NCBI GenBank assembly: GCA_035515475.1
Contig: DATJBF010000005.1
Span: 41,420-105,419, forward strand
Direction: 5' to 3'
DNA: 64,000 nt
Source: Verrucomicrobiia bacterium
GTDB taxonomy: Bacteria > Verrucomicrobiota > Verrucomicrobiia > Palsa-1439
Of this stretch, positions 27,036 to 50,289 are shown piece by piece. Position numbers and translations under genes: made by a program. The notes beneath the pieces were generated by a model. It was not told where the DNA came from. It made no database searches and worked only from the letters and a program-made list of their open reading frames with translations. Every line of letters starts with the position of its first letter. Position 1 is the first letter of the stretch.

Positions 27036-27556
27036 TGTTCACCTCATTCAGTGCGAACCCGTAAACTGCGGCAACAGCGTTAGCACCGGCTATGCCCCGT
27101 CAAAATCGGACTCGGGGAATACTTGCGCAACTCATTGATTGGAGGAAGGATGAAAAGGGTTTTCTGGTAGGACGCCGTGTAGACTGGCCACTGGCGAGCC
27201 CGCCAAGTTGTCAGTGCCCGGTATGAGCCGGGACAATTTGTCGGTCGGTCCCACGGGGCCCACGGCCCTGTGCAACCGTCCTTGACGGAGCGCGGTTGGA
27301 CCCTCTATACAGGCTTCAGAATCCGATGTCGACAGGAGGCTCCTCCTGATGCGCCGGGCAGGTCTGTTCGGGACGGCGCCGCGTCGATTACGAATGCGGC
27401 GGTGCGTGGCTCATCAACCGGGAGCACAGGCCGAGTTTGGGGGAGATGGTCATCCAGTGAGACAACTATGGTTCAAGAAATTCCGTCCAACAATTAAGCG
27501 GAACACCGGTTGGGCGGCCACTGAGACATGACGTCGATATCCCGCAGGGTGACATT

Positions 27557-28264
27557 ATGCCGAAACTGGACACCGAACTGCATGTGAAGATGTTTCGGGC
27601 CGGGAAACGGCGACGAAGCCTCACTTCACGGATCCGGAAAGCGATCAAGGTGTTACTCGGCAAGGACGACGTGTACGGACTCGAATGGGGTGACCCGGAC
27701 GTGTTCCCTCCCTTGCGGCACGTTCGAGATCATTTCGTCATGCCGTATCTCGCGCCTGACAAAACGGTTGTGGAGATAGGTCCTGGTGGCGGGCGGTGGA
27801 CGCGCTATATGCTCTGCGCCAAACAGATTTATGCGGTTGATTACCATCAAGAAATCCTGAACGAACTCAAATCGAACTTCGACGCTGCGAACATCGCCTG
27901 CGTCAAGAACCACGGGGACGATTTTCCGAACATACCAGATGGGTCGGTTGACTTCTTGTTTTCTTTTGGAACGTTCGTGCACCTCGACGTCGATCTCATT
28001 GATCGCTATCTTCGAAACATGAAACCGTTGCTGAAGCCCGGGAGTCAGGTCGTCATTCAGTATTCGGACAAGACCAAGCCTCGGGGCCGGAGCAACGAAG
28101 GGTTTTCGGAGAATGACCCCGATAACATGCGAAAGCTTGTCCTGTCTCACGGCTATTCGATCCACGAAGAAGATTTGGAAACGCTGGCGCACAGTTCGAT
28201 TGTTCGGTTTGGGCCTCCCAAGGTCGGCACGGGCCCGGAGGCGACGGCGAGAGCCGGTAAGTAA
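27557..28264 (+). CDS. class I SAM-dependent methyltransferase
   Basis: Motif I VVEIGPGGGRWTRYM, motif post-I AVDYH, Rossmann-like pattern; 235 aa. Confidence 0.7.
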   Translation: MPKLDTELHVKMFRAGKRRRSLTSRIRKAIKVLLGKDDVYGLEWGDPDVFPPLRHVRDHFVMPYLAPDKTVVEIGPGGGRWTRYMLCAKQIYAVDYHQEILNELKSNFDAANIACVKNHGDDFPNIPDGSVDFLFSFGTFVHLDVDLIDRYLRNMKPLLKPGSQVVIQYSDKTKPRGRSNEGFSENDPDNMRKLVLSHGYSIHEEDLETLAHSSIVRFGPPKVGTGPEATARAGK

Positions 28265-28692
28265 CCCGCCTCAGTTCTCTTTCGCAGGCTCGCGGCGCTC
28301 ATGCCGCATCGGTTATTCCGGGCTTGGTGGCTGGCTAAGCGTCTGCTCTCCGGTGGGATGCCAACGGCGGTGATTCTGATCGTGATTCTGCGGGAACACC
28401 GGACAAGTTCGGGAGGGGCGCGAATCGGTCGACGCGGGAGGGTGTTGGCTGGGCATTGGTTGCCGGCAGCGCTCCCTAAGCATTCCACTGCGCTGCCGGC
28501 CCCAAGCTTGAGCCCGCCTGACCGTCTATCGCGACCCACGATGCCGGGGAGGGAGACGCCCCGGCGAAATTGCCTGGCCACACCGCAAAAGAACAAACGG
28601 GGTGAAACGTGAAAGCTGACCGGACTCAGCAAAACCGTTTCGCTAGGGTGGAATCTAGCACTTCGACGGGGAAGGAGCTACGCTTGGCTTGT

Positions 28693-29577
28693 CTACTTCT
28701 TAACCCGGATTGACAAGCCCCGACGGGCGCGGAACTCCGATGGCGAGCAGCCAACCTGGCGACGAAAAGCCCGGTTGAAATACGGAATGGAATCGAACCC
28801 GGCCTCGAACGCGACTTCGCTGACCCGCAGATGGCGGTTCAGCAACAGCTTCTTGGCCGCCTCGATGCGCAACTGCGTTCGGTACTCGGTGAAGGTCAAC
28901 CCGGTCTGTCTCTTGAACAGCTTGCAGAAGTGGCAGGGACTGATGTGCAAACGATCGGCCAATTCGCGCACGGTCGTGGCGCGGTCGCCCTGTTCGGCGA
29001 AATAGGCCTCGATCTTCTGCAGCAGCGGCGACCGTTGGCCGGCTTCTTCCAGCAACAGACGCTGGCCGCACTCGGCGAGATACTGCGCGAACATCTCCAA
29101 CAGCGTTTCGACGGCGTGCAATTTCTTGGTGTCCAGCGACGGGCTTGCGTGCCAACTGGCCTGCAGGGCGTTGACCCGAGATTGCAGTCCCCATTTCTTG
29201 AGTTGGCCCGTCAGCCGCCGCAACTGCACGGCGTCCAGCGTCCCGAGGGAGAAAGGCCCGGCCAGCAGATTCCCCACGTGACGGCCCCCGATCACGACCG
29301 GCGTTACCAGCTTGATCAGCCCGGCGGGACATTGGCAATGCGCGGCCCGGCCCGTGCCCGCGGCCTTGCGCTCGGCGGTCAAGAGTCTTTGCTGGCACAA
29401 CTCCCCGCTGCCCGGGCCCATGCAGCCGTCGATACAGAACAGTGACGAGAGCGGCGTGCCGGGTTTTCCGCTGCCGCTGGCCGGCAACAACGTCAACGGC
29501 AGCCCGGTCGCGCAGCTAAACGCGACCTGTTGCCGCCGGACCGCGTCCGACTTCACGAGTTGCTGCCAGATATCCAT
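28693..29577 (-). CDS. AraC-family transcriptional regulator with Cys-rich N-terminal sensor domain
   Basis: C-terminal dual HTH (VRELADRLHISPCHFCKLFKRQTGLTFTEYRTQLRIEAAKKLLLNRHLRVSEVAFEAGFDSIPYFNRAFRRQVGCSPSEFR). N-terminal domain carries C-x3-C and C-x-C pairs (CIDGCMGPGSGELC, HCQCPAGL). Confidence 0.8.
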   Translation of the reverse strand: MDIWQQLVKSDAVRRQQVAFSCATGLPLTLLPASGSGKPGTPLSSLFCIDGCMGPGSGELCQQRLLTAERKAAGTGRAAHCQCPAGLIKLVTPVVIGGRHVGNLLAGPFSLGTLDAVQLRRLTGQLKKWGLQSRVNALQASWHASPSLDTKKLHAVETLLEMFAQYLAECGQRLLLEEAGQRSPLLQKIEAYFAEQGDRATTVRELADRLHISPCHFCKLFKRQTGLTFTEYRTQLRIEAAKKLLLNRHLRVSEVAFEAGFDSIPYFNRAFRRQVGCSPSEFRARRGLSIRVKK

Positions 29578-30813
29578 TCAGATTCCCCCGAACAGATGGG
29601 CCGGTTCGTGCATCCGTTTCGGCTCGTACACGCAAAACGGCTCTTCGGCCATGTAATCGCCTGCGGCGTGAAATGCCCGAGCCCGACAGCCGAGGCAGAT
29701 TCTCTTGAACTCGCACAGACCACACTTGCCTTCGAGTTGGTCGACGTCGCGCAAGCGGGCGAACACTTCCGAATCGTTCCAAATGTCGCGAAGGTTTTTC
29801 CGCTTCACGTTGCCCGCGCTGACCGGCAGATAGCCGCAGGGGAACACCTCGCCGGTATGCGACACGAAACAGACGGCACTGCCCGCCAAACAACCCTTGG
29901 TCATCGCCGCCATGGCCCCGGAAGAAGAGGGAGGATGGGGTATGGTTGATGGTTGATGGTTGCCGGTGGAGGCAGGCGATCGTTCCGCTCGCCTCTGGAA
30001 CGAGGCTCCGGCGCGCCCGTCGGTCTTCGCCCGTTGCCCGTCGTTCCTCTCCCTACGTTCTTCCGCGAGGCGCTGCCGCATCACGCGGAAGTAGTGCGGT
30101 GCGCAGGTGGCCTTGAGATGGACCTCACCCAGTTTGGTCTTGTCGTACATCCAATTCAACACGCGCTCGTATTGCTCGGCGGGAAGCATGTTCGATTGCG
30201 CGATTTGCACGCCACACCCGACCGGCACGAGCATGAACAGGTGCAACGCGTCGGCGCCCAGTTCCAATGCCAGCGAATAGAGTTGCTCGATCTGGTGAAC
30301 GTTGTGGTTGGTAATGGTGCAATTGATCTGCATGCTCATCCCGAGCCGACGCAGGTTGCGGAACCCGCGCAACGCGGCGGCGAGCGAGCCGGATTGACGG
30401 CGGAACTCGTCATGCGTCGTTTCGTCGGCGCCGTCGATGCTGATGGCCACGCGGCGGATACCACAGTCCACAATGGCGTGGGCCAGATGCTCGTCGATGA
30501 GCGTGCCGTTGGTAGCAAGCGCCACAGGCAGGCCGGCGTCACGCGCGCAAGCCGCGATCTGAAAGATGTCGGGTCGGAACAGCGGTTCGCCACCAGAAAG
30601 TACGAGGATCGGCTTGGCGAACTCGGCGAGGTGACGAACGAACTGGAACGCCTCGACCGTCGTCAGATCGTTCTTCATCAGGTCCTTGCTGACGTCGAGG
30701 CGCCGACAGTGAATACATTCGAGGTTGCAGCCAGCGGTGGTCTCCCAGAAGAGGAGCCTCAACTCATGATTGTCCAGTCCCGCGCCCATTGCCGCACAAT
30801 GGGGGTTTAGCAC
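29578..30813 (-). CDS. radical SAM/SPASM enzyme, AhbC-like (putative Fe-coproporphyrin III synthase)
   Basis: LLFWETTAGCNLECIHC CX3CX2C motif, GGEPL, and C-terminal SPASM cysteines (CFVSHTGEVFPCGY...CGLCEFKRICLGCRARAF). Low-complexity linker before the SPASM domain. Confidence 0.7.
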   Translation of the reverse strand: MLNPHCAAMGAGLDNHELRLLFWETTAGCNLECIHCRRLDVSKDLMKNDLTTVEAFQFVRHLAEFAKPILVLSGGEPLFRPDIFQIAACARDAGLPVALATNGTLIDEHLAHAIVDCGIRRVAISIDGADETTHDEFRRQSGSLAAALRGFRNLRRLGMSMQINCTITNHNVHQIEQLYSLALELGADALHLFMLVPVGCGVQIAQSNMLPAEQYERVLNWMYDKTKLGEVHLKATCAPHYFRVMRQRLAEERRERNDGQRAKTDGRAGASFQRRAERSPASTGNHQPSTIPHPPSSSGAMAAMTKGCLAGSAVCFVSHTGEVFPCGYLPVSAGNVKRKNLRDIWNDSEVFARLRDVDQLEGKCGLCEFKRICLGCRARAFHAAGDYMAEEPFCVYEPKRMHEPAHLFGGI

Positions 30814-31303
30814 TGTCGATGCCAGAGAGGGTGCCAGTTTGACAATAACTTGTCGTACAACGGCTTTCGAGGGCTGGTTCGTGGTCGCTAGAACGCCACA
30901 AAGCTGACAATTTGGCGGCGTGTGGGGGACGCCTCGACAACTTGTCTCGGTCGTCGATGGTGGGTATACGATGCTGGATGCTGGACGGTGGTGACAGGGT
31001 CTGCGACCGATGACGCTGGAACTTCAATCAGGTTTCGGTCGTCTCCCGTCGCCGATCCTCTCATCGCCGATTTCTTATCTTCTCCCCTTGCGCTTGCGAG
31101 GTTCGGGCGTAAGTTCTAGCGAGAGAGCCGAGCGGACACCTCTCAGCACTCAATGGGAAAGGCCTTCGGGCTTACCTCGACAAAGATCGGGGATTTAGGA
31201 ATCGGGGAGTGCGACACTCGGCTCTCTTTTTTTGTGAGTTTCGGACATTGCTCGAGCCGGTGCCGTGAGCGACCGGGACTCGATCATCTTGGAGGCCGAC
31301 CGC

Positions 31304-33322
31304 CTAGAACCGCACGGTGCAGCTGGCGCTGGCGAGGTGGGCGATGTAGTTGTCGACGCCGCCGCTACTGCGGTCGTCGTAGGCATAGTATCCGTAGCGG
31401 AGGCGGGCGATGATATGATTGGAAATCCGGTGGGTGAGACCGACGAGCAGCCCGTGGCGTTGGTAGTCCAATCCCAACGGGAGACCGGCGGCTGAGTTGT
31501 CGGTGAAATTGTCCGAGCGGGAGTAGGTGTACTCGACGTTCACGTCGGTCTTCTTGTCGAGCGCGTAGCCGGCGGTGCCCATGATGGTGTACACGTTGCC
31601 GACGTAATCAACCACGGCCGGGTTTCCATTGGCGAACGACGAGGTGCGCGTGTCGTCAAGCGAGAAGAGGCCGGTCACGTACAGGCGCGCGATCGGCGTG
31701 ACCGTGGCGCTGACGCTGTAGATATTGGCGTCGAAATTGCCCGAGGTCAGTTCGCCACCCGGCGCCAGCATGGGAACGGAGTCGGTGGTGGTCTTGATGT
31801 CGGTGGCCAGCTTCTGGTAGCGGAACGCCACGTTGAAGTAGCGGCAAGGGCGCAGCGTCAACTTGGCGGTTACCTCGTCCTCGATAAAGTTCTGTCCCGT
31901 AATGAACGCGGGATAGCCCGCGATCGTGTCGAGAGTGTGGTCGTAGTCGTTGTCGTAGATGCTGTGGCGGTACCGGCCGGCGAGGGTGACCCGGGGAAGC
32001 GGCGCGGTGTTGAAGCCGACGGTGTAATCCTGGCGCCAGATGTCGGTATCGGTCTTGCGGGCGAAATCCAGCGCGGCGTCTTGGGTCTCGCGTTCTTCGA
32101 GGTCGATCGACTGTTCGTTCCACCGTCCTTCGGCGTAGAGCGTGGTGAACGGAATCTTGGTGTAGCGCAGCCCGACGGTCTCTTCGAGGCTGCGCTTGTT
32201 GTTGCTGCTATGAATGAGCGCTTCGGGGCTGTTGGTCGCGCCGCCGCCCGCGAGCTGGGTCAGGAACGCGTCGGTGAATCCATGGGTGTCCGTCTTCTCG
32301 GCCTCGGCTCCGGCGGCGATGGTCAAGCCGGCGAACGGGCCGAACATGGTGTTGAAGTTGACGACGTGGGAGTCCACATCGACGGCAATCACACTCGTGA
32401 CCCAATCCCGGTCAAACGGAGCACTGAACGGCTCGGTGTTGATGGACAGGCCGCCGCCACCGTTGAGGCTGGTGAACAAATACCCGAGCGACCAATACAC
32501 CTTGTCGTTTACATGCTGGTCCATGCGGAACGCATTGGAGAACTCGTCGTGATGGTAGTGCTCGGTGACGGTGACGGTCTGGCCGGCGGCGGAGACCAGG
32601 TTGGTGGAGGCATCGTGCCGTTGGTCGACGTTGCGAGGATGTTCGTAACGGAATTGATCGGCCAGATGCAGGCTGTTGATGTCGTGTTCCACGTCGGCCT
32701 TGATGATGTCGACCGTCTCATTGACGTGCTCGTAGGACGGGAAGATGTTACGGGTGGTGATGCCCTGGGTGGTGGCGCCCCATTCCAACAACGATTCTTG
32801 GCCCTGGCGGATCTGTCGCTCCACACCCAAGGTAAGCTTCGGCAGGTTCGGCAGCGTCAGCCCCACCTCGGCGAAGGCGTCGCCGTGGCGGACAAACAGA
32901 TCCTGCGCGGTCCCGAACGCAGGTGGAACCAGACCCCGGAAAAACCCACCGGCGCTGTCGTAATACGACTGGAATTCGGTGAAACCTCCGCGGACGAAAC
33001 CCACGTCGGGGTTCACGATTTCCAGCCGCAACTTGTAGTCTTCGTCGTCGAAGAGTGCCCGGCCTTGGACATTCAACTGCCAATTCTTGTTGAGCTTCTG
33101 ACTATAGGTCGCGTCTTCGATCCCGCCCGACCAGCCGTTCTTGATCCACCAGTCCTGACGGAACTTGTTCGCGTCGCCCTTCACGGTAACGTACTGGCCC
33201 CCGGATGTGACGCTCACTTCGGGAGGCGACGTCGAGTTGGTTTCCGCCGTCGTGGCCGGGGGAGACACGAGCGCGAGCGCGGGAAGGCCGATCATGAACA
33301 TTATCAGGATCGATCGTTTCAT
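31304..33322 (-). CDS. large outer-membrane beta-barrel protein (MtrB/PioB-like porin of a porin-cytochrome conduit)
   Basis: Signal peptide (MKRSILIMFMIGLPALALVS), about 670 aa of alternating amphipathic beta-strand pattern rich in Y/G/T/N, and terminal residue Phe (…CTVRF). Immediately downstream of two multiheme cytochrome genes in the same orientation. Confidence 0.6.
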   Translation of the reverse strand: MKRSILIMFMIGLPALALVSPPATTAETNSTSPPEVSVTSGGQYVTVKGDANKFRQDWWIKNGWSGGIEDATYSQKLNKNWQLNVQGRALFDDEDYKLRLEIVNPDVGFVRGGFTEFQSYYDSAGGFFRGLVPPAFGTAQDLFVRHGDAFAEVGLTLPNLPKLTLGVERQIRQGQESLLEWGATTQGITTRNIFPSYEHVNETVDIIKADVEHDINSLHLADQFRYEHPRNVDQRHDASTNLVSAAGQTVTVTEHYHHDEFSNAFRMDQHVNDKVYWSLGYLFTSLNGGGGLSINTEPFSAPFDRDWVTSVIAVDVDSHVVNFNTMFGPFAGLTIAAGAEAEKTDTHGFTDAFLTQLAGGGATNSPEALIHSSNNKRSLEETVGLRYTKIPFTTLYAEGRWNEQSIDLEERETQDAALDFARKTDTDIWRQDYTVGFNTAPLPRVTLAGRYRHSIYDNDYDHTLDTIAGYPAFITGQNFIEDEVTAKLTLRPCRYFNVAFRYQKLATDIKTTTDSVPMLAPGGELTSGNFDANIYSVSATVTPIARLYVTGLFSLDDTRTSSFANGNPAVVDYVGNVYTIMGTAGYALDKKTDVNVEYTYSRSDNFTDNSAAGLPLGLDYQRHGLLVGLTHRISNHIIARLRYGYYAYDDRSSGGVDNYIAHLASASCTVRF

Positions 33323-33332
33323 GAGCGCATCC

Positions 33333-34199
33333 CTAGTACCGCAAGTGGGAGTTGACATCCGAACCATGCACCGCGGTGTGACAGCCGGCGCTGAAACAGG
33401 TGCCGCGGCTCAGGAACGGCGTGTGATCGAACTGGCCGATGATGGTCATGCCCCCCGAGCCGGGCAGCGCGACCTGGGCGTGGCATTTCAGGCACAGATT
33501 ATTGTCCTGCTCGGTAAGCAATTTGTCGTTGATGGAGCCGTGCACGTTGTGGCAGGTGGTGCAGCCCTCGCGCAGTGCTTCGTGTTCGAACACGTGCGGC
33601 CGGGCCTGCTCGCGGTGGCATCGGGCGCAGGTCTCATTGGCGCGGGTGAGAAACGTGCCTTTGGCCTGCATGATGTTTTCGCCGTGCGGATCGTGGCAAT
33701 CGGTGCAACTCATTCGGCCTTCTTTGACCGGATGATGGTGGGGAAGGCTGAACTCCGCGTTCTTGTCGAGATGGCATTGAAAACACATGTCGGGGCCCTT
33801 GCCGGAGATGATAAATCGATCCTTGGGCGTGCCGCCGCCGGCATCAACGTGCAGGCTGCCCGGCCCGTGGCAGGATTCGCAGCCCTGGCCCTCGACCCGC
33901 TCCCCCTCGCCGGGAATCTGGATGCGGGCATGCGCGGTGAGTTTGAAGTTCTGGACTTCCTTCTCGTGGCAGAGCGCGCATTGGTCCATGCCGACGTACT
34001 TCGCCCCGGGAATCATCGGCGGCGCCACGACAACCCGGTCCACCGTCGCACAAGAGATCAAGAGTCCGACGATGGCGATGCCGCCGATGATGCTTCCCAG
34101 GTACAGCTTCCTGGAAGTAGCCGTGCTCAAGGCCTGTCCTCGTTCAGCGGAGGTCCGCGCTCGGGAAATCGCCGGTAACACCGCCGTAGGGATTGCCAA
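33333..34199 (-). CDS. periplasmic octaheme c-type cytochrome (MtrA/OmaB-like)
   Basis: 7 CxxCH plus one CX4CH (CALCH, CESCH, CFQCH, CTDCH, CARCH, CTTCH, CLKCH, CFSAGCH) in about 260 aa; N-terminal signal/anchor. True start probably slightly downstream of 34199 (the ORF overlaps the upstream stop). Confidence 0.85.
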   Translation of the reverse strand: MAIPTAVLPAISRARTSAERGQALSTATSRKLYLGSIIGGIAIVGLLISCATVDRVVVAPPMIPGAKYVGMDQCALCHEKEVQNFKLTAHARIQIPGEGERVEGQGCESCHGPGSLHVDAGGGTPKDRFIISGKGPDMCFQCHLDKNAEFSLPHHHPVKEGRMSCTDCHDPHGENIMQAKGTFLTRANETCARCHREQARPHVFEHEALREGCTTCHNVHGSINDKLLTEQDNNLCLKCHAQVALPGSGGMTIIGQFDHTPFLSRGTCFSAGCHTAVHGSDVNSHLRY

Positions 34200-36732
34200 C
34201 GGTGGTCGTCCGCCTGTCGAACGTGTTCGTACTGAGCATCGTGTAGGTCCACTGCAGGAGGCGGACAGTGTAAGCGGTATTATGCACGCCGTGGCTCAAC
34301 TCGCGGGCGATCATCTGGTAGTTCCAGACGGCGGCATGCTGAGCGGTCGCCACAACCGTGTTGGTGGAGTACCCACTCCAGAACGGGTAACCGGCGCTAT
34401 GCTTGAGGGAGTTTGTCGCCGTCGAGCTGTCCACGCAATTCGTCATCTTGTCTTCCAGATTGGCCAGCAGGCCATCGACTTCCGTCTGCACGCCGCTGAC
34501 CGTGCCGTCACCGTTGTAGTCGGCCGCGCCGGGGAACCCGCTTCGGACAATCGAGACGTGATCGAAACCTTCGGCTTCCGTAACCGGATCCACGCCGGCG
34601 TGGCACTGGTTGCACGCGGCAATGTCATCTTCCCCCGTCAATCGGTCGCTCATGCTGAACGTGTGATCGCCGACCGTGTTCACGCCGGCGTTATACATGT
34701 GGCAATCGATGCACTTGGCCACACCGGAGTGCGCCGAGTTTTCGAGGGTGACGCTAGCCACCGGCACGAGATTGGTCACTCCGCCGGTGACCACCGTCGC
34801 CACCACATTGGTGACGGTGTCGAACCCGAGGAGGATGTCGGTTGCCGTGCTTTCGTGGGGTAAGCTACTCATGTAATACGGCTTGCCGCTGCTGACTTGG
34901 TACGGATTCGCGCGGGCGTTGTGGCATTGCATGCACAACGCGGAAGCGCCCTGACCAGTCAGGACGGCATTGGTGCCGGTCGAAGTATCAATGCTGTCGA
35001 GCGTGACCGTGTCATACACCCGGACCTGATGAGCATCCGCCGGGAACATCGCGACGTTGTGTGGATCGTGGCAGGCCTGGCAGGTGAGCCGGCCGGCTTC
35101 CAAGCGCGTGAGCGCCTTGCCCTTCAGGTAATCGACGAAGCTCGTCGGCGAATGGCACTTGGCGCACGAAGGGTTGGGGGCTTCGCCGATCGACACGGAA
35201 AGATATTCATCATCGGCGCCGTGCGGTCCCAATCTCCATTGCTTGGGCCGGTTATGGAAATGGCCATCCTGATGGCAAGTGGCGCACACGGCGACGTCCA
35301 GGTTGGCCGACTCGGCACCGGGGTGCTGGCTACCAGGGCCGTGGCAGCTTTCGCACTGGATGTTGGCCTTGTTCTGCAACGCCGCCGGCATCGCCGCATA
35401 GTTGCCGTACTGCAGCACGGTGGGGAACGTCCAGCCGACTTCCTGCTGGACCGCGTAAAAGTTTCCATTAGTTGCCGAAGGTGACTGGTTGTAGCCCACG
35501 GTATGGCAGGCCAGACAGCTGGCATTGTACGAGGAGCCCAGCAGCCCGTCGATGCCCCGCTGGGCCATCGTGGCGTGCAGCGTCTGGCTCCACGGCGTGT
35601 AGTAATCTTCCAATCCGACCAGCGGGCTGGTTCCGTGACACGACGCGCAGGTGGCGACCCCGACATACGTGGCTCCCCGCACGGTCACGAACGAAGAGTT
35701 TGTCTTCCCGCCGCCGCTCACTGTCAGTTGCAGGACATAATCACCTTCCGCGTCCGGTTCCAGGGACGGCGTGCGTGTCTTGGAGCCCACCAACACCGCG
35801 GTCGAACCGGTCGGCTTGGCCGTGATACTCCAACTGTAGGTCGAGGCGTTTGTTCCGTTGGGTGCCCCGGTCAAGTACTGTCGCTCGCCGAGCGGGATGG
35901 ACGGCTGTCCCGGTGAAACACTGGTCGAAATCACCGTGACGGTACCCGTCGCGGCATGCGCCGCATCCGAAACGATGACTTGAAGATGGTAGGTGGTCGC
36001 CGTTACCTGCTCTGAGGTGAAGTGGACGAGGTTCGAGTTCGTCGCCAGATCGTACGAGTTCTCCAGATCGACGGGATCCAGGACGTTGGTGACGCCGCCG
36101 CTCGTGACGTCCAGCAAATTAGTGAAGCTGGTGAGCGGCAGTGTGTTAAATGTCGGCGCATTTGTGGTCGTGGAACTGAACGTCGCGTTTGTCCGCACGT
36201 CGGTGTCGGTCAGGCTCCAGGCGTACGTGAGGGGCGGAGTGAATCCGTTGGTCGAGACCGCGTCCGCGTTGACGGCGACGTTCGTGTTAAATCCGACATC
36301 GTAAAGAGTCGTTTGCGGCGTGGTGGGCGCGGCGGCTGCGCTGATCGTAATCAGAACCGACTTCTGGCCGATGTTCCGGCGACCGAGCTTCGCTTTCACG
36401 CGCAGCACGGCTGTGCCCAGGAAATTGGTCGGGATCGCCACCGAGTCGCTCGTTACCGACATGACACCGGCGACGACTGAGTTTGTGAGGGCGGGGAAGA
36501 GCACCCGTAATTTCTTACCCGTGAGCCGGCCTTTGGTAACGAGAACACCCGGGCTCGTCACGGTCAGATTGAGTTGATACGTGAGCGTGCCGCCGGATGT
36601 CGGGCTCCCGCCGATCTGGAGCGTTCCCAGTTGGGCTGGTGGAGGTTTGGCCGCGCAAACGGGCTGCAAAACCGAAGTCACCAGCGCGCCGACCAACAAG
36701 CTGGTGCCAACAAACAAGGCGTGTCGAGACAT
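34144..36732 (-). CDS. large secreted/cell-surface 9-heme c-type cytochrome with N-terminal beta-rich (Ig-like) repeats
   Basis: Start MSRHALFVGTSLLVGALVTSVLQPVCA (signal) with GGAGGA RBS. About 380 aa of Thr/Ser/Val-rich strand-like repeats, then 9 CxxCH (CASCH, CLACH, CESCH, CATCH, CAKCH, CQACH, CMQCH, CIDCH, CNQCH). Confidence 0.85.
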   Translation of the reverse strand: MSRHALFVGTSLLVGALVTSVLQPVCAAKPPPAQLGTLQIGGSPTSGGTLTYQLNLTVTSPGVLVTKGRLTGKKLRVLFPALTNSVVAGVMSVTSDSVAIPTNFLGTAVLRVKAKLGRRNIGQKSVLITISAAAAPTTPQTTLYDVGFNTNVAVNADAVSTNGFTPPLTYAWSLTDTDVRTNATFSSTTTNAPTFNTLPLTSFTNLLDVTSGGVTNVLDPVDLENSYDLATNSNLVHFTSEQVTATTYHLQVIVSDAAHAATGTVTVISTSVSPGQPSIPLGERQYLTGAPNGTNASTYSWSITAKPTGSTAVLVGSKTRTPSLEPDAEGDYVLQLTVSGGGKTNSSFVTVRGATYVGVATCASCHGTSPLVGLEDYYTPWSQTLHATMAQRGIDGLLGSSYNASCLACHTVGYNQSPSATNGNFYAVQQEVGWTFPTVLQYGNYAAMPAALQNKANIQCESCHGPGSQHPGAESANLDVAVCATCHQDGHFHNRPKQWRLGPHGADDEYLSVSIGEAPNPSCAKCHSPTSFVDYLKGKALTRLEAGRLTCQACHDPHNVAMFPADAHQVRVYDTVTLDSIDTSTGTNAVLTGQGASALCMQCHNARANPYQVSSGKPYYMSSLPHESTATDILLGFDTVTNVVATVVTGGVTNLVPVASVTLENSAHSGVAKCIDCHMYNAGVNTVGDHTFSMSDRLTGEDDIAACNQCHAGVDPVTEAEGFDHVSIVRSGFPGAADYNGDGTVSGVQTEVDGLLANLEDKMTNCVDSSTATNSLKHSAGYPFWSGYSTNTVVATAQHAAVWNYQMIARELSHGVHNTAYTVRLLQWTYTMLSTNTFDRRTTTVGNPYGGVTGDFPSADLR

Positions 36733-36757
36733 GTCTTTTGTCCTCCAGCCAACCATC

Positions 36758-36777
36758 TTGGCAGGGCACGTGCCAGC
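36758..36777 (-). promoter_or_regulatory. candidate sigma-54 (-24/-12) promoter upstream of the 9-heme cytochrome gene
   Basis: Minus-strand sequence CTGGCAC-GTGCC-CTGCC matches TGGCAC-N5-TTGCW except for one position, about 25-45 nt upstream of ATG 36732. The adjacent gene encodes an NtrC-type sigma-54 activator. Confidence 0.35.
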
Positions 36778-37078
36778 CCGCCTCTCGGGCTCCACAAGGA
36801 CCTAGCCATCAAACGCTTAATAAGCCTTTAGCTCTTTCGTCGGTCGAGGTAAAGCTAATTCTAGCGCGACTTCGCTCGGTCGATTGCGTGATTCCGCGCG
36901 GACTCCGCGATGGGTGTCGTCGCGCCGGCGCCATTTCATGCGGGTTTCAGGGAAGGCGAGCGCCCGTGGCACAACCACTGCTGGGCCGAGACGCGCATGT
37001 TATCGGCCAAAGTACTCTGGTCTGTCGTCGCCTTGATTGGGCTCGCGGTTCTGGCTCTTTCGGCCATCGTGATTGTCA

Positions 37079-38476
37079 TCAGCACGTCGCCGCGCTAGGC
37101 TCGCCCGCCGCGTCCAGCAAACCGTACTTCACCAGCCGCCGTCGCAACGCGTCGCGTTCGATGCCCAACAATTCCGCCGCGCGGGTTTGGTTGCCGCCGG
37201 CGCGCTCCATCGCCTGCAGGACGAGTTCGCGTTCGACTTCGGCCAGCGCCACGCCCCGGCCGGGCAGTTCGACCACCCATTTCCCGTTCTTCTTCACGCC
37301 GGCCCGGATTTCAGGAGGGAGATGCTTGGGCTGAATGACGTCGTCGGATTCCAGGATGACCAACCGTTCGACGGCGTTGCGCAACTCGCGGACGTTCCCC
37401 GGCCAATCGTAACACCGCAGCGCGTCCCCGGCCTCGGGGGACAATTGTTTCGGCGACTTCTTGAATTCTTCGGCAAAGTGCTTGAGAAAATGTTCGGCCA
37501 ATTGGGGAATGTCCTCGCGTCGTTCTCGCAACGGCGGGATGTCGACCGAGATCACCTTCAGTCGATAGAGCAAGTCTTGGCGGAACTCACCACGCGCCAC
37601 GGTTTCGGTGAGGTTCTTGTTGGTGCAGGCGATGACGCGGACATCCACCGCGATGTCCTGCGTACCGCCGACCCGGCGAAATTGCCGGGTCTCGAGTACG
37701 CGCAGCAACTTGGCCTGCATCGCCGGTTTGAGGTCGCCGATTTCATCGAGCAGCAACGTGCCGCCGTCGGCCAACTCGAATAACCCTTTCCGGGACGTCT
37801 TCGCGTCGGTGAACGCGCCGCGCTCGTGGCCGAACAATTCGCTTTCGAACAGGTTTTCCGGCACGGCCGAGCAATTGATGTCGAGGAACGGATGTTCGGC
37901 GCGTCGGCCGCCGAAATGGATCGCCCGCGCGGCCAGTTCCTTGCCCGTCCCGTTCTCGCCTTCGATCAGCACCGTGGTCGCGTCGCTTTCGGCAATCTTG
38001 GCGAGCAACTCGCGCGCAGCACGCATCGGGGGGCTTTGGCCGACGAGATTCTCCAGACCAAACTTCCGCGCCTGTTGGCGTTGCAGGCGGGCGACTTCAC
38101 GGCGCAGCTTTAATTCCCCGCGCGCCTTGTCCAGCGCCACGCGGACCTCATCGAAGTCGAACGGCTTGCACAGATAATTGTGGGCGCCGAGCCGGACGCA
38201 TTCCACCGCGCGGGCGATGCCCGTATCGGCGGTCAACATGATGACGGCGATTTCCTTTCCGAGATTCTTGATTTCCTGCAGCACCTGGACGCCGTCCATG
38301 CCGGGCAGGCGCAGATCGAGCAGCACCAGATCGTACCCATCGTTGCGGATCAGGTTGAGTCCTTCCTCGCCGCTGGGGGAGGTCTCCACCTCGTAGCCTT
38401 CGCGCATCAGCTTTTGCTGAAGCGACCAGCGCACCAGCTTCTCATCGTCAATGACCAATACTTTGGCTCTAGCCAT
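37079..38476 (-). CDS. sigma-54-dependent response regulator (NtrC family)
   Basis: Receiver (KVLVIDDEKLVRWSL...LVLLDLRLPGMDG), AAA+ sigma-54 interaction domain (GENGTGKELAARAIH, ESELFGHERGAFT GAFTGA motif) and C-terminal Fis-type HTH. Confidence 0.9.
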   Translation of the reverse strand: MARAKVLVIDDEKLVRWSLQQKLMREGYEVETSPSGEEGLNLIRNDGYDLVLLDLRLPGMDGVQVLQEIKNLGKEIAVIMLTADTGIARAVECVRLGAHNYLCKPFDFDEVRVALDKARGELKLRREVARLQRQQARKFGLENLVGQSPPMRAARELLAKIAESDATTVLIEGENGTGKELAARAIHFGGRRAEHPFLDINCSAVPENLFESELFGHERGAFTDAKTSRKGLFELADGGTLLLDEIGDLKPAMQAKLLRVLETRQFRRVGGTQDIAVDVRVIACTNKNLTETVARGEFRQDLLYRLKVISVDIPPLRERREDIPQLAEHFLKHFAEEFKKSPKQLSPEAGDALRCYDWPGNVRELRNAVERLVILESDDVIQPKHLPPEIRAGVKKNGKWVVELPGRGVALAEVERELVLQAMERAGGNQTRAAELLGIERDALRRRLVKYGLLDAAGEPSAATC

Positions 38477-39983
38477 GGCTGAATACCTCCTCCCGTACGT
38501 CCGCTTCGGACGGAGCCCAGGCGGCAAATTCCAGGGTGAACGTGCTTCCCCGGCCGACGTCGCTGGTCACTTCAATCACGCCCCGGTGTTTTTCCACGAT
38601 GGTCCGGGTAATGGCCAATCCCAGTCCTGTGCCGCGGTGTTTCGTCGTGAAGAACGGCGAGAAAATCTTCCGCAGGTTCTCCGGCGCGATGCCGTTGCCC
38701 GTGTCGCAGATGCTGACGCGGACGGACCGATCGTGACCGGGCCGCAACACTTTGTTCAACGTTTCCGCGCGCACCGTCAACGTACCGCCGTCGGGCATCG
38801 CTTGAACGGCGTTCAGGAGGACGTTCAGGACCGCCTGTTGAACTTGGGAACTATCGGCGCAGATCGGTGGCAGGTCGGCCGGACACTGCTCGACAATTCG
38901 CACGTGCTGCTTCTGAGCGTCGGGCCGAATCAGCCCGAGCATGGGCTTGATGATATCGCTCACGGCGCAGGCCGCGATCTCCGGGTCGCGCTGGCGCGAG
39001 AAATCCAGCAACTCCCGCAAGGTGGCGTTCAAGCGCGCGATCTGCCGCCGGATTTCGGCGACAATCTCGCCCTGCTGTCCGTTGCCGCCGTTTTCCGACA
39101 GCACTTCCACTGCCGCGCCGATGCCGGCCAACGGATTGCGGATCTCGTGGGCGATGCCCGCGGCCAGTTCGCCAATCGAGGCGAGCTTGCCCGCTTGTTG
39201 GATCTGCTTCTCGTGCGACTCGTGCAATTCGCGTTTGGCGGCATCGAGGCTCTGCAGCATCCGGTTGAAACCGGTGGCGAGCTCGCCGATTTCATCTTTG
39301 GTCTGCGCGGCGACCCGAACGTTGAGGTCGCCGGCCTGGACCTTGCGCATTTGTTCCAAGACCTGACTGACGGGTTGAGTGACCAGCCGGACGATGAGCA
39401 GCCACAACACAACGCCGACCAGCACGAAGATCACCACGCCGTAGGCGATGAGCAGATTGCGGTTGCTGGCCACGCTGGCTTCGGCGGGCGCGAGGGACCG
39501 TTCCAGGACAATCGCGCCGTTGTATCGCTGCCGGGGATCGTGACATTTCTGGCAGCTGTCGACGTTGGTGACCGGGCGCATGGCGACGGCGAGACGTTCG
39601 CCGTTTTCGGTCCGCTCCCCCTGCAGCACACGGCCTTCGCCGAACAATTCCGGCGGCACGGTCATTACGGCGTGCTCGATCTCCTGGGTTTCGGTCGAGA
39701 ACGCCACCGTGCCGTCGACGCGGATCACGCGGCCCCGGCGGATTTCGTCGCTGGCCTGCATCCGCATGAGGAATCCCTGCAACTCCAGATGGCGATCGCT
39801 GAGCATCACGCCGTTGAGGTACTCGTGCACCATCGAGGCCGCGATGAGATTCTGCGCCTGGGTGCGCTCGTGCCACCATTCGCTTTGGACGCGAATCACG
39901 AAATACGTGTAGATCCCGATTACCATGGCAACCGTTACGCCGACGGCCACGAGAACTTTCGCCGTGAGATTACGTCGCAGCAT
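38469..39983 (-). CDS. sensor histidine kinase with periplasmic heme-c-binding (CxxCH) sensor domain
   Basis: Two TM segments flank a periplasmic domain of about 150 aa containing CQKCH. HAMP, HisKA (IAHEIRNPLAGI) and HATPase_c (DTGNGI, GTGLGL) follow. Overlaps the downstream regulator start by 8 nt. Confidence 0.85.
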   Translation of the reverse strand: MLRRNLTAKVLVAVGVTVAMVIGIYTYFVIRVQSEWWHERTQAQNLIAASMVHEYLNGVMLSDRHLELQGFLMRMQASDEIRRGRVIRVDGTVAFSTETQEIEHAVMTVPPELFGEGRVLQGERTENGERLAVAMRPVTNVDSCQKCHDPRQRYNGAIVLERSLAPAEASVASNRNLLIAYGVVIFVLVGVVLWLLIVRLVTQPVSQVLEQMRKVQAGDLNVRVAAQTKDEIGELATGFNRMLQSLDAAKRELHESHEKQIQQAGKLASIGELAAGIAHEIRNPLAGIGAAVEVLSENGGNGQQGEIVAEIRRQIARLNATLRELLDFSRQRDPEIAACAVSDIIKPMLGLIRPDAQKQHVRIVEQCPADLPPICADSSQVQQAVLNVLLNAVQAMPDGGTLTVRAETLNKVLRPGHDRSVRVSICDTGNGIAPENLRKIFSPFFTTKHRGTGLGLAITRTIVEKHRGVIEVTSDVGRGSTFTLEFAAWAPSEADVREEVFSHG

Positions 39984-41247
39984 GCCGGGCCTCCCGGGCC
40001 ACCCCGACGGATGTTGGCGAAACCGGCGCACCGGCCGCCGGGTGCTCAAACAGCGGCAGGTAGCGGGCGGCCAGGCCAAAAATGACCAGGCCAAACGAGA
40101 GCAGATTCAACGTGATCACGATCTCGATCCACGAGGGAAAATAATGCGAGCCGGTGGCGGGCAACAGGCCGATCCAGGCCACGTTGAGCCGGTTGAGAAT
40201 TACTCCGACGATCACCGGGATCGCGGCGGCAAACGCCCAGCGCCGGCGGCCCGACCACCGGGTCTTCAGCAGCACGAACAACGGCAGCGTCAGCAGCACC
40301 ATCTCCACCGTGAACGTGAATCCTTGGAGCGGATAGGCGAACACGTCCACCCACGCGTTCCGCGCCGTGAGATCGGCAATGCGCAGGAACAAATACAACA
40401 TCAGGAACGGGGTCATGCTCTTCGCCAGCACCGTCAGCACCTTCGGATCCAGTGGCCGCCGGAACATCCAAAACGACAACGCCGAAACGAAAATCGCCAT
40501 CGCGAAACCGGAGACCAATGCGCTGATGAAGAAAAACACGGGAATGAACGGCGAATACCACAACGGCAGCAGCTTCTCGGGCACGATCAGAAACAACGAG
40601 CCGAGCGACGATTGATGCACGGTCGACAGCACCACGCCGCAGATCACAGCAGGAACGGTCACGGCGTGGACGAAATGCTCCAGGCGATGCCAGCCGAGCT
40701 TCTGGAGAACAATCGGCGCAAACTCCACGGTCAACACGCACGTGTACAGGATCACGCACCACGAGACCTCGAAGAGCACGGACCGATGCTGCCAGCTCAC
40801 AATGGGCATCCAGATTTTGTAGTAGCGTCCGAGATCGACGATCAAGGCTCCCGACGCCGACAGCGTGTAGCAGAGATAAGCGGCCAGGACGATGGGACGC
40901 AGGATCGGGTAGAAGGTCCGAATGCGAAACACGTACGCCATGCACGCGGTCAGAAACCCGCCGGCGGCAAAGGCGATTCCGCACAGAACCATCGCCTTCC
41001 ACAAGCCCCACGGAAAAGCGTTTGTGAGGTTCGTGACGGCTCCCAACCCGAGCGTGTAGCGCGTCGCAAACGCATATCCGCCGAGACCCCACAGCGCAAT
41101 CAGGAACGCCCACCCGACGACGGCGGCGGAGAACGATCGCGGACGTTGCCGGCCTTCGAGGAACCAGCACGCGACCACCGCCAGACCCGCCATGACCAGC
41201 GCGGCGAAAATGCGAAACAGAATGAGCAGGAAATCCATTTCAGCCAT
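39970..41247 (-). CDS. NrfD/PsrC-family integral membrane quinol-interacting subunit
   Basis: 425 aa, about 10 TM helices, NrfD-like size and hydropathy; follows an NrfC-like Fe-S protein with an 8-nt overlap. Confidence 0.7.
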   Translation of the reverse strand: MAEMDFLLILFRIFAALVMAGLAVVACWFLEGRQRPRSFSAAVVGWAFLIALWGLGGYAFATRYTLGLGAVTNLTNAFPWGLWKAMVLCGIAFAAGGFLTACMAYVFRIRTFYPILRPIVLAAYLCYTLSASGALIVDLGRYYKIWMPIVSWQHRSVLFEVSWCVILYTCVLTVEFAPIVLQKLGWHRLEHFVHAVTVPAVICGVVLSTVHQSSLGSLFLIVPEKLLPLWYSPFIPVFFFISALVSGFAMAIFVSALSFWMFRRPLDPKVLTVLAKSMTPFLMLYLFLRIADLTARNAWVDVFAYPLQGFTFTVEMVLLTLPLFVLLKTRWSGRRRWAFAAAIPVIVGVILNRLNVAWIGLLPATGSHYFPSWIEIVITLNLLSFGLVIFGLAARYLPLFEHPAAGAPVSPTSVGVAREARHAAT

Positions 41248-42145
41248 GCGTTTCCTTCCGGCTGCGCAGACGGGACACGGCGCTGAGGATCAATCCCAGC
41301 CCGATCACAATGTAGGGAACCTTTGCCAGCCAGTTCCAGGTCAAGGCGGGCAGGGGCGTCGTCGGCAGGCCCGTGGGCAGACCGAGTTGCTCCACGGGGA
41401 TATCCGACAGGTACAACCACGAGGTTCCTCCCACCACGCGGTCGCCAAATAACGTGACGTACCGTTTGGGTTGCGCGGCGACGCGGGCCCGGGCTTCCTG
41501 CAAGATGTCCCGGTGTTTTCCATACTTCAACGCGCCCGTCGGACAGGCGGCCACGCAGGCGGGCAAAAGCCCGGCGGCCGTTCGGTCGTCACAGAAATCG
41601 CACTTGTTCACGCGAGGAGTCAACGCGTTGTCCCACTCGTATTTCGGCACGTTGAACGGGCACGCCAGAAGACAGTAGCGGCAACCGATGCATCGGTCGT
41701 CCCGCCAGACAACGGAACCGCGAGCCGTCTTCTCCAGCGCGGCGACGGGACAGACCGAAACGCAGGCGGGCTCCAGACAATGCATGCATTGCCGTTTCAC
41801 GGGGACCTGACGCATCGATCCCTCGGACGTGGGAACGTCGCGGAAATCCACAAACGTCCGCGATTTGAACGTCAGCTTGCCGTCGCCGGGCCCGTACCCG
41901 AACGTTGCGGGCGCCAACCCCGGATAGCCCTGCCGCACCAAGCAAGCGTTCTCGCAAGCCCGGCATCCAATGCACCGCGTGAGATCGACCAGCACCGCGC
42001 CGTCCCGGCTCGCGTCGTGGGACCCGCTTTCGGCTGACGACGCGGTCGCACCGGCCGCCAGCAGCGACAGCCCGGCCATGCCCCGGCGACAAAACGTGCG
42101 CCGCGAGATGCGCTGGGCAAACAGATGATGGCGTGGCTCCGTCAT
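41240..42145 (-). CDS. Tat-exported 4x[4Fe-4S] ferredoxin subunit (NrfC/PsrB/HybA-like)
   Basis: Twin-arginine signal (RRTFCRRGMAGLSLLAAGATA) and four Cys clusters (CIGCRACENAC, CMHCLEPACVSVCP, CIGCRYCLLACP, CDFC...CVAACP). Confidence 0.85.
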   Translation of the reverse strand: MTEPRHHLFAQRISRRTFCRRGMAGLSLLAAGATASSAESGSHDASRDGAVLVDLTRCIGCRACENACLVRQGYPGLAPATFGYGPGDGKLTFKSRTFVDFRDVPTSEGSMRQVPVKRQCMHCLEPACVSVCPVAALEKTARGSVVWRDDRCIGCRYCLLACPFNVPKYEWDNALTPRVNKCDFCDDRTAAGLLPACVAACPTGALKYGKHRDILQEARARVAAQPKRYVTLFGDRVVGGTSWLYLSDIPVEQLGLPTGLPTTPLPALTWNWLAKVPYIVIGLGLILSAVSRLRSRKETHG

Positions 42146-43152
42146 GGTTCCTTCGCGTCGGGAGGTTGGTTGTGCGCGGACGGATCCCGCGCCGGACCCG
42201 AATCACGGTCCTGTTTGCGGGCCCGGAAATGGGGCACGGCATACCCGCAGAATACTCCCAAGAGAAACGCCAGGGCGATCAACGGGACAAACACACGTTG
42301 GTTTGCCTGCAAGTCGGCGCGCAGCTTGGCAGCCTGTTCCTCCAGGGAGCCAACCTTGTTCTCCAAGGCCTCGGGGTTGGCCGCTTTGAGCCGGGCCACT
42401 TCCTGTTCGAGCGTAGCCGTCTCATGGCTTTGGTGGACCATTTCCCGATGGCATCGGATGCAGGTCTCCGCGCCGACCGTGAAGGTGTGGCCGCGGACGC
42501 CCGTTCCGCGGATTTTCGGCGTGCCCGTCGCCAACTCAGGCATGTGGCAGGTAATACAGTGCAGTCCTTGGGAGTGATGCGTCGCGTGGGTGAAATCCTT
42601 GAGTTGTTCGGCGTGACAGGTGCCGCACATCTGGTCGGGATCGTCTTTGCGCAACGCCATGCTATGCATTTTATGACAATCAAAACAGCGGACGTTTTTC
42701 TGGCCGTGGGCGCTGACGCGCCATTCCCCATAGGTGATGCTGTGGCACGCCTGGCAGACGTCCGAGGTCACCGGCAACGCCATCTTCTCCTTGTCGGGAT
42801 GATCGTCCTTCGCCGGGCCGTGACAGGATTCACAACTCACGCCGTCGTGAGAGAATTGCCCGGTTTTCCGGTCGTACTGGCTGGTGTGGCAGACGAGGCA
42901 TTCCCACTTGTTTCCCTGCTGCTCGCGGATCGCCAGGAACTCGGGATTGACCGCCCGTGCGTGGGCCGAGGCCGCCCAATCCTTGGTGTCCTGTTCGTGG
43001 CAGAGCGCGCACCGGTCAGACGCTTTCTCCTCGTCCGCCCACGTCGTCATTACGCCCCAAATGACCAATGCCGAAATCCCAATGACCAGATACCGGCAAA
43101 ATCCGAATGGCAGAAACAGGGGCGCGCGACGTGTTTTTTTGGTGATCGTCAT
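42142..43152 (-). CDS. membrane-anchored octaheme c-type cytochrome
   Basis: 8 CxxCH (CALCH, CLVCH, CESCH, CQACH, CFDCH, CGTCH, CITCH, CIRCH) with N-terminal signal anchor and C-terminal TM (PLIALAFLLGVFCGYAV). Confidence 0.85.
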   Translation of the reverse strand: MTITKKTRRAPLFLPFGFCRYLVIGISALVIWGVMTTWADEEKASDRCALCHEQDTKDWAASAHARAVNPEFLAIREQQGNKWECLVCHTSQYDRKTGQFSHDGVSCESCHGPAKDDHPDKEKMALPVTSDVCQACHSITYGEWRVSAHGQKNVRCFDCHKMHSMALRKDDPDQMCGTCHAEQLKDFTHATHHSQGLHCITCHMPELATGTPKIRGTGVRGHTFTVGAETCIRCHREMVHQSHETATLEQEVARLKAANPEALENKVGSLEEQAAKLRADLQANQRVFVPLIALAFLLGVFCGYAVPHFRARKQDRDSGPARDPSAHNQPPDAKEP

Positions 43153-47101: not shown

Positions 47102-47115
47102 GGGCCCCGTCCTCC

Positions 47116-50176: not shown

Positions 50177-50289
50177 CGTCAAGGCTCCTTGAATGACTGG
50201 TTCGTGTTCTGACCGGCTACTCCTCTGCCGGGCGATCATACCGACATCCCAGATTTTTTCCACACAAAAATGTTCGTCGTCAAACGTCC

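Follow-up and report, generated by a model that had tools for sequence, protein, structure and literature searches.

A 64,000-nucleotide (nt) stretch of contig DATJBF010000005.1 (assembly GCA_035515475.1, a Verrucomicrobiia bacterium), hereafter the window, carries three co-directional genes on its minus strand, inside 31304..36795, for a nonahaem c-type cytochrome, an octahaem c-type cytochrome and an outer-membrane beta-barrel. We think it probable that this trio is a trans-outer-membrane electron conduit of the MtrAB type that works with a different surface partner and is expressed as one sigma-54 operon, and we hold the direction of electron flow with less confidence than the conduit itself. 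The trio consists of an MtrAB-lineage core, with a shortened and probably lipidated haem wire, and a surface partner of OcwA lineage. Its architecture is already in print: matched against the published description, the trio is a further member of the cluster type that appears as porin-MHC (multihaem cytochrome) in He et al. 2017 (PMC5615132) and as EET3 in Fiorito et al. 2026 (bioRxiv 10.64898/2026.05.27.727921).

The three open reading frames (ORFs) read right-to-left in window coordinates and are backed by codon-position G+C content (0.78-0.83 at third positions). A first-pass annotation of the window had described three co-oriented, tightly packed genes with products of 862, about 260 and about 670 amino acids (aa), which agrees with intergenic gaps of 13 nt (nonahaem/octahaem) and 10 nt (octahaem/barrel) and with final lengths of 862, 265 and 672 aa. 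Its haem motif counts were also right: the first ORF has nine CxxCH and the second has seven along with CFSAGCH. The third ORF has no such motif. The maximal nonahaem ORF (34144..36795) runs for 883 aa from a GTG, but its true start is almost certainly the ATG at 36732, which is closely preceded by a GGAGGA ribosome-binding site and a sigma-54 -24/-12 element; over its 862 aa the product matches P0121, deposited from a Verrucomicrobiae metagenome-assembled genome (MAG), at 100% identity. The maximal octahaem ORF (33333..34199) covers 288 aa from a TTG, and its start lies at a second TTG at 34130, 13 nt past the nonahaem stop and preceded by an AGGA ribosome-binding site, which gives a 265-aa product identical to deposited P0241, named 'cytochrome c3 family protein'. 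Two outer start codons, a GTG at 36795 and a TTG at 34199, were dropped because ribosome-binding sites, promoter position and deposited protein lengths all favor the internal ones. For the barrel (maximal ORF 31304..33367) the most likely start is M16 at 33322, 10 nt past the octahaem stop.

The octahaem ties the trio to the Mtr lineage by sequence. In a phmmer search it matched MtrA (6r2q_A) with an E-value of 6.2e-31, colinear over residues 70-281 of the 288-aa ORF; chain A was taken as MtrA on the grounds that the entry is described as the Mtr complex and that Fiorito et al. cite this chain as MtrA. It also matched TIGR03508 (DmsE family decahaem; E 4.2e-46) at 157.5 bits, below the cut-off of 192.2, and its best NCBIfam match, likewise below cut-off, was 'GSU2203 family decaheme' (2.9e-51). 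Haems 1-2 align to MtrA haems 1-2 and haems 5-8, including the Cx4CH site CFSAGCH, to MtrA haems 7-10, while haems 3-4 align equally well to MtrA 3-4 or 5-6. This pairing indicates that one internal dihaem unit is missing from the octahaem, which by its sequence is a bona fide MtrA/DmsE-family homologue shortened by that unit. All 45 octahaem homologues that were inspected (the related loci plus the window) keep a lipobox, LLIS|C in the window copy, within an N-terminal pattern of a positive n-region, a hydrophobic stretch, [LIVAF][IVAF]-S-C and (A/S)T, about 20 residues before the first haem. Given this conservation, the octahaem is predicted to be lipid-anchored at its N-terminus. The N-terminus of MtrA is the periplasmic end in the MtrCAB structure, and MtrA is not known to be a lipoprotein. 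Anchor and shorter wire together suggest that the octahaem reaches just across the barrel and is held in place at the inner mouth.

The link between the third gene product and MtrB is structural. An AlphaFold2 model built with 39 homologues has a mean predicted local distance difference test (pLDDT) score of 85.4 and 26 long strands, and the protein has a signal-peptide-like N-terminus and a C-terminal CTVRF, as expected from the first-pass description of an outer-membrane barrel with a terminal Phe. When the model was compared with the PDB by Foldseek, MtrB (6r2q_B) came out on top with an E-value of 1.8e-15, template-modelling (TM) scores of 0.67/0.69 and 552 aligned residues, and it was the sole full-length structural match, at only ~12-13% sequence identity. 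All subsequent matches were to 22-strand TonB-dependent transporters, with TM ~0.4 over ~330-460 residues. No plug or TonB-box domain was found in the barrel with Pfam, and the partial alignments, the lack of a plug and the count of 26 strands against 22 led us to reject a TonB-dependent transporter or usher; nor is the barrel of the FadL type, which agrees with the first-pass reading. A word-indexed search returned 166 homologues, the best at 79% identity and the named ones all Verrucomicrobiota MAGs, and a profile search of a 1.8-billion-protein representative set returned 1159 clusters at E<=1e-3. Three distant family members pass the 23-bit cut-off of the Pfam family MtrB_PioB (PF11854), namely P0119 (32.8 bits), L036 (29.9) and L037 (24.9), with matches that fall in a colinear region; in two samples of the family such matches occurred in 2 of 39 and 5 of 64 members. 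We conclude that the barrel represents a diverged branch within the MtrB/PioB superfamily, and that its window copy lies outside what the current PF11854 model can detect.

Among the 147 best cluster representatives found with the barrel profile, 58 (within P0375-P0499) are ~780-915 aa long and carry one N-terminal CxxCH (two in P0391), the N-terminal extension being a PSCyt1 'Planctomycete cytochrome C' domain in 17 of the 64 members scanned with Pfam. These monohaem-barrel fusions look like a Cyc2-style fused cytochrome-porin on a 26-strand barrel and like a sister clade; the single context that was read, around L048:5001-7487, holds no multihaem gene within 5 kb. The barrel relatives P0119 and P0388 show weak matches to the GSU2204 family CXXCH-containing (seleno)protein (8e-10, far below cut-off). 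Going by their locus-tag numbers, GSU2203 and GSU2204 would be neighboring Geobacter genes, and as a pair they may be a distant cousin of the octahaem-barrel pair.

The nonahaem differs from the Mtr lineage. It consists of a Sec/signal peptidase I (SPI)-like signal, three Ig-like/PKD-like domains (residues ~33-354), a core at residues 362-711 (862-aa numbering) that holds the nine CxxCH (at 383-728 when the 883-aa ORF is numbered) and, at the C-terminus, a region with three helices, and all nine motifs are invariant in a 34-sequence alignment. The Ig-like domains are well modelled by AlphaFold2, with a PKD-like match in Pfam, as the first-pass annotation had supposed from an N-terminal beta-rich region, and the helices at 748-765, 792-811 and 819-835 reach pLDDT ~75-92. 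Lineage was assigned by searching a profile of the 34 sequences against PDB sequences, not by structure. The top match was OcwA of Thermincola potens (6i5b_A; E 1.3e-13), in five colinear stretches that run from the first haem motif to the C-terminus, where the last nonahaem helix aligns to the OcwA helix with SxGVHN; MtrA (8.6e-7), NrfA (9e-5) and MccA (1e-3) followed, and no chain of MtrC, OmcA, MtrF or UndA appeared at E<=1. TIGR03507 (OmcA/MtrC) gave no match to the nonahaem in the NCBIfam scan. PF22113 was matched in part (46.8 bits, profile positions 81-168 of 176), a family that is also matched by the octahaem, just below cut-off, and by the other cytochromes of the window. An MtrC identity, which the first-pass annotation had also set aside, is rejected on the nine haems, the domain layout and the lack of a TIGR03507 or MtrC-chain match. 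On this profile evidence the nonahaem, which takes MtrC's place in the operon, belongs to the OcwA/NrfA lineage of cytochromes and not to that of MtrC.

A conserved N-terminal Cys is absent from the nonahaem family across the same alignment. Four distant homologues (P0229, P0230, P0236 and P0240), 31-32% identical over two thirds of the nonahaem and equipped with FlgD-Ig or fibronectin domains, end in type IX secretion C-terminal sorting domains (PF18962); the same haem core would thus be exported to the surface by a different route in these proteins, which we assume to come from Bacteroidota-like organisms. The chain of Ig-like domains, of a kind known from surface proteins, the SPI-type signal without a conserved Cys and the type IX-sorted relatives together suggest that the nonahaem lies at the cell surface, where it is probably a terminal reductase.

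Related loci were collected in a scan at one genome per species that returned 47 loci, 41 of them usable. Nearly all carriers are Verrucomicrobiia or other Verrucomicrobiota MAGs, from peat (SPRUCE, Stordalen 'palsa'), Danish soils and lakes. In 41 of the 41 usable loci the barrel gene is directly preceded on its own strand by an octahaem gene with 7+1 motifs, with barrels 31 to 79% identical to that of the window, and in ~26 of them an 800-950-aa nonahaem gene precedes the pair (it follows the pair in one). The closer loci share a recurrent order of NrfD-like gene, sensor kinase, sigma-54 regulator, nonahaem, octahaem, barrel, AhbD-like and AhbC-like gene. One of them, in the MAG palsa_1439 (L007), has the same synteny as the window with products 58-78% identical, and we infer that the order which Fiorito et al. 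tie to EET3 was named after this MAG. Five loci with the barrel-octahaem pair (L023, L028, L036, L037 and L041) are labelled Desulfobacteraceae, Deltaproteobacteria, Limnocylindrales, 'Klebsiella sp.' and Planctomycetota; these labels could reflect horizontal transfer or errors of binning or labelling, and the Klebsiella label is doubtful.

A TGGCAY-N5-YTGC element stands directly upstream of the nonahaem gene in 18 related loci besides the window, and in three loci without a nonahaem gene (L029, L030 and L033) the sigma-54 element stands upstream of the octahaem gene instead. A scan of the operon for sigma-70 promoters and intrinsic terminators gave no more hits than shuffled controls. The gene directly upstream of the cytochrome genes, in the window and in most related loci, encodes an NtrC-type sigma-54-dependent response regulator that is probably the activator of the conduit operon. 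Since this regulator gene and that of a sensor histidine kinase adjoin the operon, the simplest reading of the sequence is one sigma-54 operon that would be under a dedicated two-component switch.

Compared with the Shewanella MtrCAB complex (6R2Q), the trio shares an MtrA-type cytochrome gene immediately upstream of the gene for a 26-strand MtrB-like barrel. It differs in that the octahaem has eight haems instead of the ten of MtrA and is a predicted lipoprotein, the barrel is missed by PF11854, and the decahaem lipoprotein MtrC/OmcA is replaced by an OcwA-like nonahaem with an SPI-type signal. MtrC, OmcA, MtrF and UndA are built of alternating beta-barrel and pentahaem domains, whereas in the nonahaem three Ig-like domains are followed by a haem core and helices. 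Gene order, homologies and the MtrB structural match support the mtrC-A-B-ordered porin-cytochrome module of the first-pass annotation. Its 'non-Mtr composition' applies to the nonahaem only, as the homology of the octahaem to MtrA and the likeness of the barrel to MtrB make two of the three parts divergent Mtr-lineage proteins; for the same reasons, and with distant barrel relatives passing PF11854, the proposal of a distinct porin-cytochrome family did not stand.

The experimentally characterized OcwA (6I5B; PMC6703420) is a nine-haem cell-surface terminal reductase of T. potens with an NrfA/c554/MccA-like haem arrangement and a three-helix bundle. The nonahaem resembles it in the nine CxxCH, the five colinear stretches, the C-terminal helical region and the NrfA/MccA/c554 relatives. 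In contrast, OcwA comes from a Gram-positive host without a porin, is only ~526 aa long and has no N-terminal Ig-like domains, while in the window a similar core is coupled to an MtrAB-type conduit in a diderm. The Geobacter porin-cytochrome complex Pcc (OmbB-OmaB-OmcB) is also a three-component complex with an 8-haem periplasmic cytochrome, but its gene order is porin-first, the reverse of the trio, its outer cytochrome has 12 haems (PMC4245776), and its proteins are reported to be non-homologous to Mtr (PMC6344600). Gene order and Mtr homology argue against membership in Pcc, the two systems being compared by description and not by sequence. The GSU2203 family, which gives the octahaem its best NCBIfam match, is a Geobacter family other than Pcc.

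The closest published systems come from the same phylum. He et al. 2017 described a 'novel porin-MHC' of Trout Bog Verrucomicrobia with porins of at least 20 transmembrane segments, eight-haem periplasmic cytochromes and, in some clusters, an extracellular MHC, and named a homologous cluster in Opitutus terrae PB90-1; homologues of the Shewanella and Geobacter systems were stated to be absent, which He et al. 2019 restated. The EET3 of Fiorito et al. 2026 has a DmsE-family, MtrA-like octahaem with seven canonical motifs and one non-canonical motif, predicted to be periplasmic, and a porin that matches 6r2q_B with TM 0.68 and E 3.6e-15, nearly the values for the window barrel (TM 0.67, E 1.8e-15); its core genes are reported to be transcribed in situ in peat, and the general interpretation reached there independently is the same as ours. 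The trio agrees with porin-MHC/EET3 in its three genes, their order and the phylum, and in the 7+1 motifs and DmsE-family match of the octahaem. A structure search with the EET3 nonahaem gave only an uninformative Ig-type match, and 'OcwA-like' is used there only for a shorter EET4 protein. In the available parts of the He 2017 and Fiorito 2026 accounts of the cluster we found no mention of the octahaem lipobox, a sigma-54 promoter with adjacent kinase and NtrC-type regulator, an OcwA assignment of the EET3 nonahaem, the sister clade of monohaem-barrel fusions, or flanking system II maturation (ResB, CcsA) and Ahb haem-synthesis genes.

From the gene content, homologies, predicted folds, conserved synteny, lipobox and promoter motif we infer how the complex might assemble, its topology, whether the nonahaem is exposed at the surface, which way electrons flow and what accepts them. 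The 672-aa protein would form a 26-strand barrel with the octahaem threaded through it as an insulated haem wire that, with one dihaem unit missing, would be about two haems shorter than MtrA. A lipid would anchor the octahaem N-terminus, plausibly where the barrel opens to the periplasm and within the inner leaflet of the outer membrane. Electrons from the quinol pool would enter through the cytochrome b/11-haem fusion and the NrfCD-like complex with its 8-CxxCH cytochrome, both encoded upstream (Table 1), and at the outer mouth would be handed to the 862-aa nonahaem, in which three Ig-like domains would carry a haem core of OcwA/NrfA type and a putative helix bundle. The nonahaem could then pass them on to acceptors outside the cell, for example Fe(III) or the quinones of humic or particulate organic matter, with expression presumably switched by the adjacent sensor kinase and NtrC-type activator.

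Several observations weigh against this reading. The window barrel does not match PF11854, scans of Pfam and NCBIfam gave it no family apart from a sub-threshold match to a generic outer-membrane protein family, and its sequence, used singly or as a 39-sequence profile, found nothing relevant in the PDB and did not reach MtrB; the link between barrel and MtrB is thus structural and transitive. The haem core of the nonahaem has pLDDT values of only 30-60 in an AlphaFold2 model without haems, so its fold lacks structural confirmation, and because this core is poorly modelled a Foldseek search with the nonahaem retrieved nothing but Ig-domain chains. No lipobox or other recognizable anchor or export signal is present in the nonahaem, which leaves its surface location a prediction. 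Its gene is absent beside the more distant barrel-octahaem pairs, which makes it an accessory part. Finally, the family is known so far only from in silico work, and the direction of electron flow is not readable from sequence.

Direction is the point on which the strongest rival turns. If the same conduit ran inward, as proposed for the MtrAB homologues PioAB and MtoAB, its electrons would come from a partner cell, reduced humics or Fe(II) outside the cell, with the nonahaem as a surface oxidase. The carriers reported so far live as anaerobic heterotrophs in peat and in bog hypolimnion, where electron acceptors are what is needed, the neighboring genes resemble quinol-oxidising modules of metal reducers (the cytochrome b/multihaem fusion being likened to CbcL), and OcwA, the nearest characterized relative of the surface partner, is a terminal reductase; we consider inward flow unlikely on these grounds, even though haem wires are reversible in principle and the distant loci hold the barrel-octahaem pair only. 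Its remaining argument is that the MtrA-like cytochrome and MtrB-like barrel form the same two-gene architecture as PioAB and MtoAB (PMC6344600).

A second rival places the nonahaem outside the wire, as a periplasmic or surface enzyme of the NrfA/MccA/OcwA lineage that acts on a soluble substrate such as nitrite, hydroxylamine or a sulfur oxyanion and is merely co-transcribed with an MtrAB-like conduit. NrfA and MccA are indeed the next-best PDB relatives of the nonahaem after OcwA and MtrA, but it has no CxxCK catalytic motif, and while it lacks a lipid anchor, its three Ig-like domains and type IX-sorted relatives point to the cell surface. OcwA itself has two haems with open coordination and reduces nitrite and hydroxylamine, yet its nitrite turnover is very low, with a kcat of 1 per min (PMC6703420). 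Only ~8 His outside the motifs are invariant or near-invariant in the 34-sequence alignment for nine haems, which leaves room for one non-bis-His haem. With the nonahaem gene also strictly first in the sigma-54 operon in the 18 loci besides the window, we regard a stand-alone enzyme as quite improbable. That the barrel is a generic large porin or transporter whose adjacency to cytochromes only reflects a cytochrome-rich neighborhood is scarcely credible, for although it misses MtrB_PioB and many 22-strand transporters reach significant Foldseek E-values against it, these align less far and with lower TM scores than MtrB, and the barrel has 26 strands, no detected plug or TonB-box, and an octahaem gene beside it in every usable locus down to 31% identity.

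We offer as a tentative idea, one we would sooner doubt than back, that the trio is a natural hybrid in which an MtrAB-type, eight-haem, lipid-anchored wire feeds a catalytic NrfA/OcwA-type nonahaem on an Ig-like stalk under two-component control. If this were true, the outer face would be a substrate-binding enzyme (for example for organic-matter quinones or oxyanions) instead of a passive electron-spreading decahaem, the dedicated sigma-54 two-component circuit would sense the acceptor, and the monohaem fusions would be evidence that evolution has put the 26-strand barrel lineage to use in several kinds of trans-membrane electron transfer.

A large share of soil carbon lies in peat and humic waters, where respiration with organic or mineral acceptors competes with methanogenesis. 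The Verrucomicrobiota, which do not count among the classical metal reducers, occur there in abundance. A conserved and regulated Mtr-type conduit in this phylum is a concrete molecular candidate for such respiration, as argued by He et al. 2017/2019 and Fiorito et al. 2026. The defined promoter and regulator pair offer a handle for induction experiments, the predicted lipidation of the octahaem is relevant to how a wire of eight haems is kept inside a barrel of 26 strands, and an OcwA-type surface cytochrome links parts of Gram-positive and diderm extracellular electron transfer.

Table 1. Features of the conduit locus and its neighborhood in the 64,000-nt window.
Feature	Coordinates	Strand	Basis and remarks
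Nonahaem c-type cytochrome, 862 aa, OcwA-like	34144..36732	-	Motifs, P0121 identity, AlphaFold2, PDB profile search
Octahaem c-type cytochrome, 265 aa, MtrA/DmsE-family homologue, predicted lipoprotein	33333..34130	-	Motifs, MtrA match, lipobox
Outer-membrane beta-barrel, 672 aa, 26 modelled strands, MtrB-like, C-terminal Phe	31304..33322	-	AlphaFold2, Foldseek
Sigma-54-type -24/-12 element TGGCACgtgccCTGC	36761..36775	-	Sequence read and pattern match; 29 nt before nonahaem ATG
Second sigma-54-like element	30810..30824	-	Precedes AhbD-like gene; kept in ~10 loci
NtrC-type sigma-54-dependent response regulator (receiver, AAA+ sigma-54 interaction, Fis helix-turn-helix)	37079..38527	-	Pfam
Sensor histidine kinase (periplasmic sensor-like region, HAMP, HisKA, HATPase)	38469..40094	-	Pfam, synteny; partner of the regulator
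NrfD/HmcC-like membrane subunit	39970..41247	-	Pfam, NCBIfam
4Fe-4S protein	41240..42145	-	Pfam, NCBIfam
8-CxxCH cytochrome	42142..43152	-	Pfam, NCBIfam, motif count
11-CxxCH cytochrome fused to cytochrome b (FdnI/HydC-type) domain, 5 hydrophobic segments	43149..45248	-	Pfam, motifs
CcsA, system II cytochrome c maturation	45175..46146	-	Pfam
HemA, flanked by ResB and CcsA	45938..47101	-	Pfam
ResB, system II cytochrome c maturation	47244..48626	-	Pfam
AhbD-like radical SAM/SPASM (haem b synthase-like)	29578..30824	-	TIGR04545 5e-131, below cut-off
AraC/PocR regulator	28693..29577		Among radical SAM genes
Methyltransferase	27557..28264	+	Among radical SAM genes
NapC/NrfH-like 6+1-motif cytochrome	53103..54689	-	Pfam, NCBIfam, motifs
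9-CxxCH cytochrome, second cluster	51913..53250	-	Pfam, NCBIfam, motifs
Rieske protein	51483..51920	-	Pfam, NCBIfam
Cytochrome b	50290..51486	-	Pfam, NCBIfam

The genes at 39970..45248 are candidates for the inner-membrane and periplasmic electron input, quinol oxidases that would feed the conduit. The NrfD-like gene adjoins the kinase gene in many related loci, and the 11-CxxCH/cytochrome b fusion is one that we take to be similar to Geobacter CbcL. The ResB-HemA-CcsA block (45175..48626, minus strand) lies upstream of the cytochrome cluster. Fiorito et al. 2026 remark on the absence of most ccm (system I) genes from these Verrucomicrobiota and suppose an unknown maturation route; system II may be the route behind that gap. 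Downstream of the barrel gene three conserved radical SAM genes were seen (24469..30824, minus strand), an AhbD-like one that is conserved immediately next to the barrel gene, an AhbC/NirJ1-like one (2e-148 to 2e-158) and a third without a family. This arrangement suggests co-regulation of siroheme-dependent haem synthesis and the conduit.

A second respiratory cluster lies at 49583..54689 (minus strand), and parts of it adjoin the barrel-octahaem pair in two related loci, L035 and L041. A stop-to-stop ORF at 49583..51493 on the minus strand overlaps its cytochrome b gene in another frame and holds four CxxCH, which suggests a putative gene for a tetrahaem cytochrome just downstream of cytochrome b. 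Altogether, seven genes of the window encode c-type cytochromes. AT skew rises to +0.30 at 40001..42000, against |0.2| or less elsewhere, where it overlaps the NrfD-like and Fe-S genes on the minus strand; this jump is likely a codon-composition effect of a hydrophobic protein. A Ser/Thr protein kinase fused to a CBM48/AMPK-type glycogen-binding module (21339..22709, minus strand) is apparently unrelated to the conduit.

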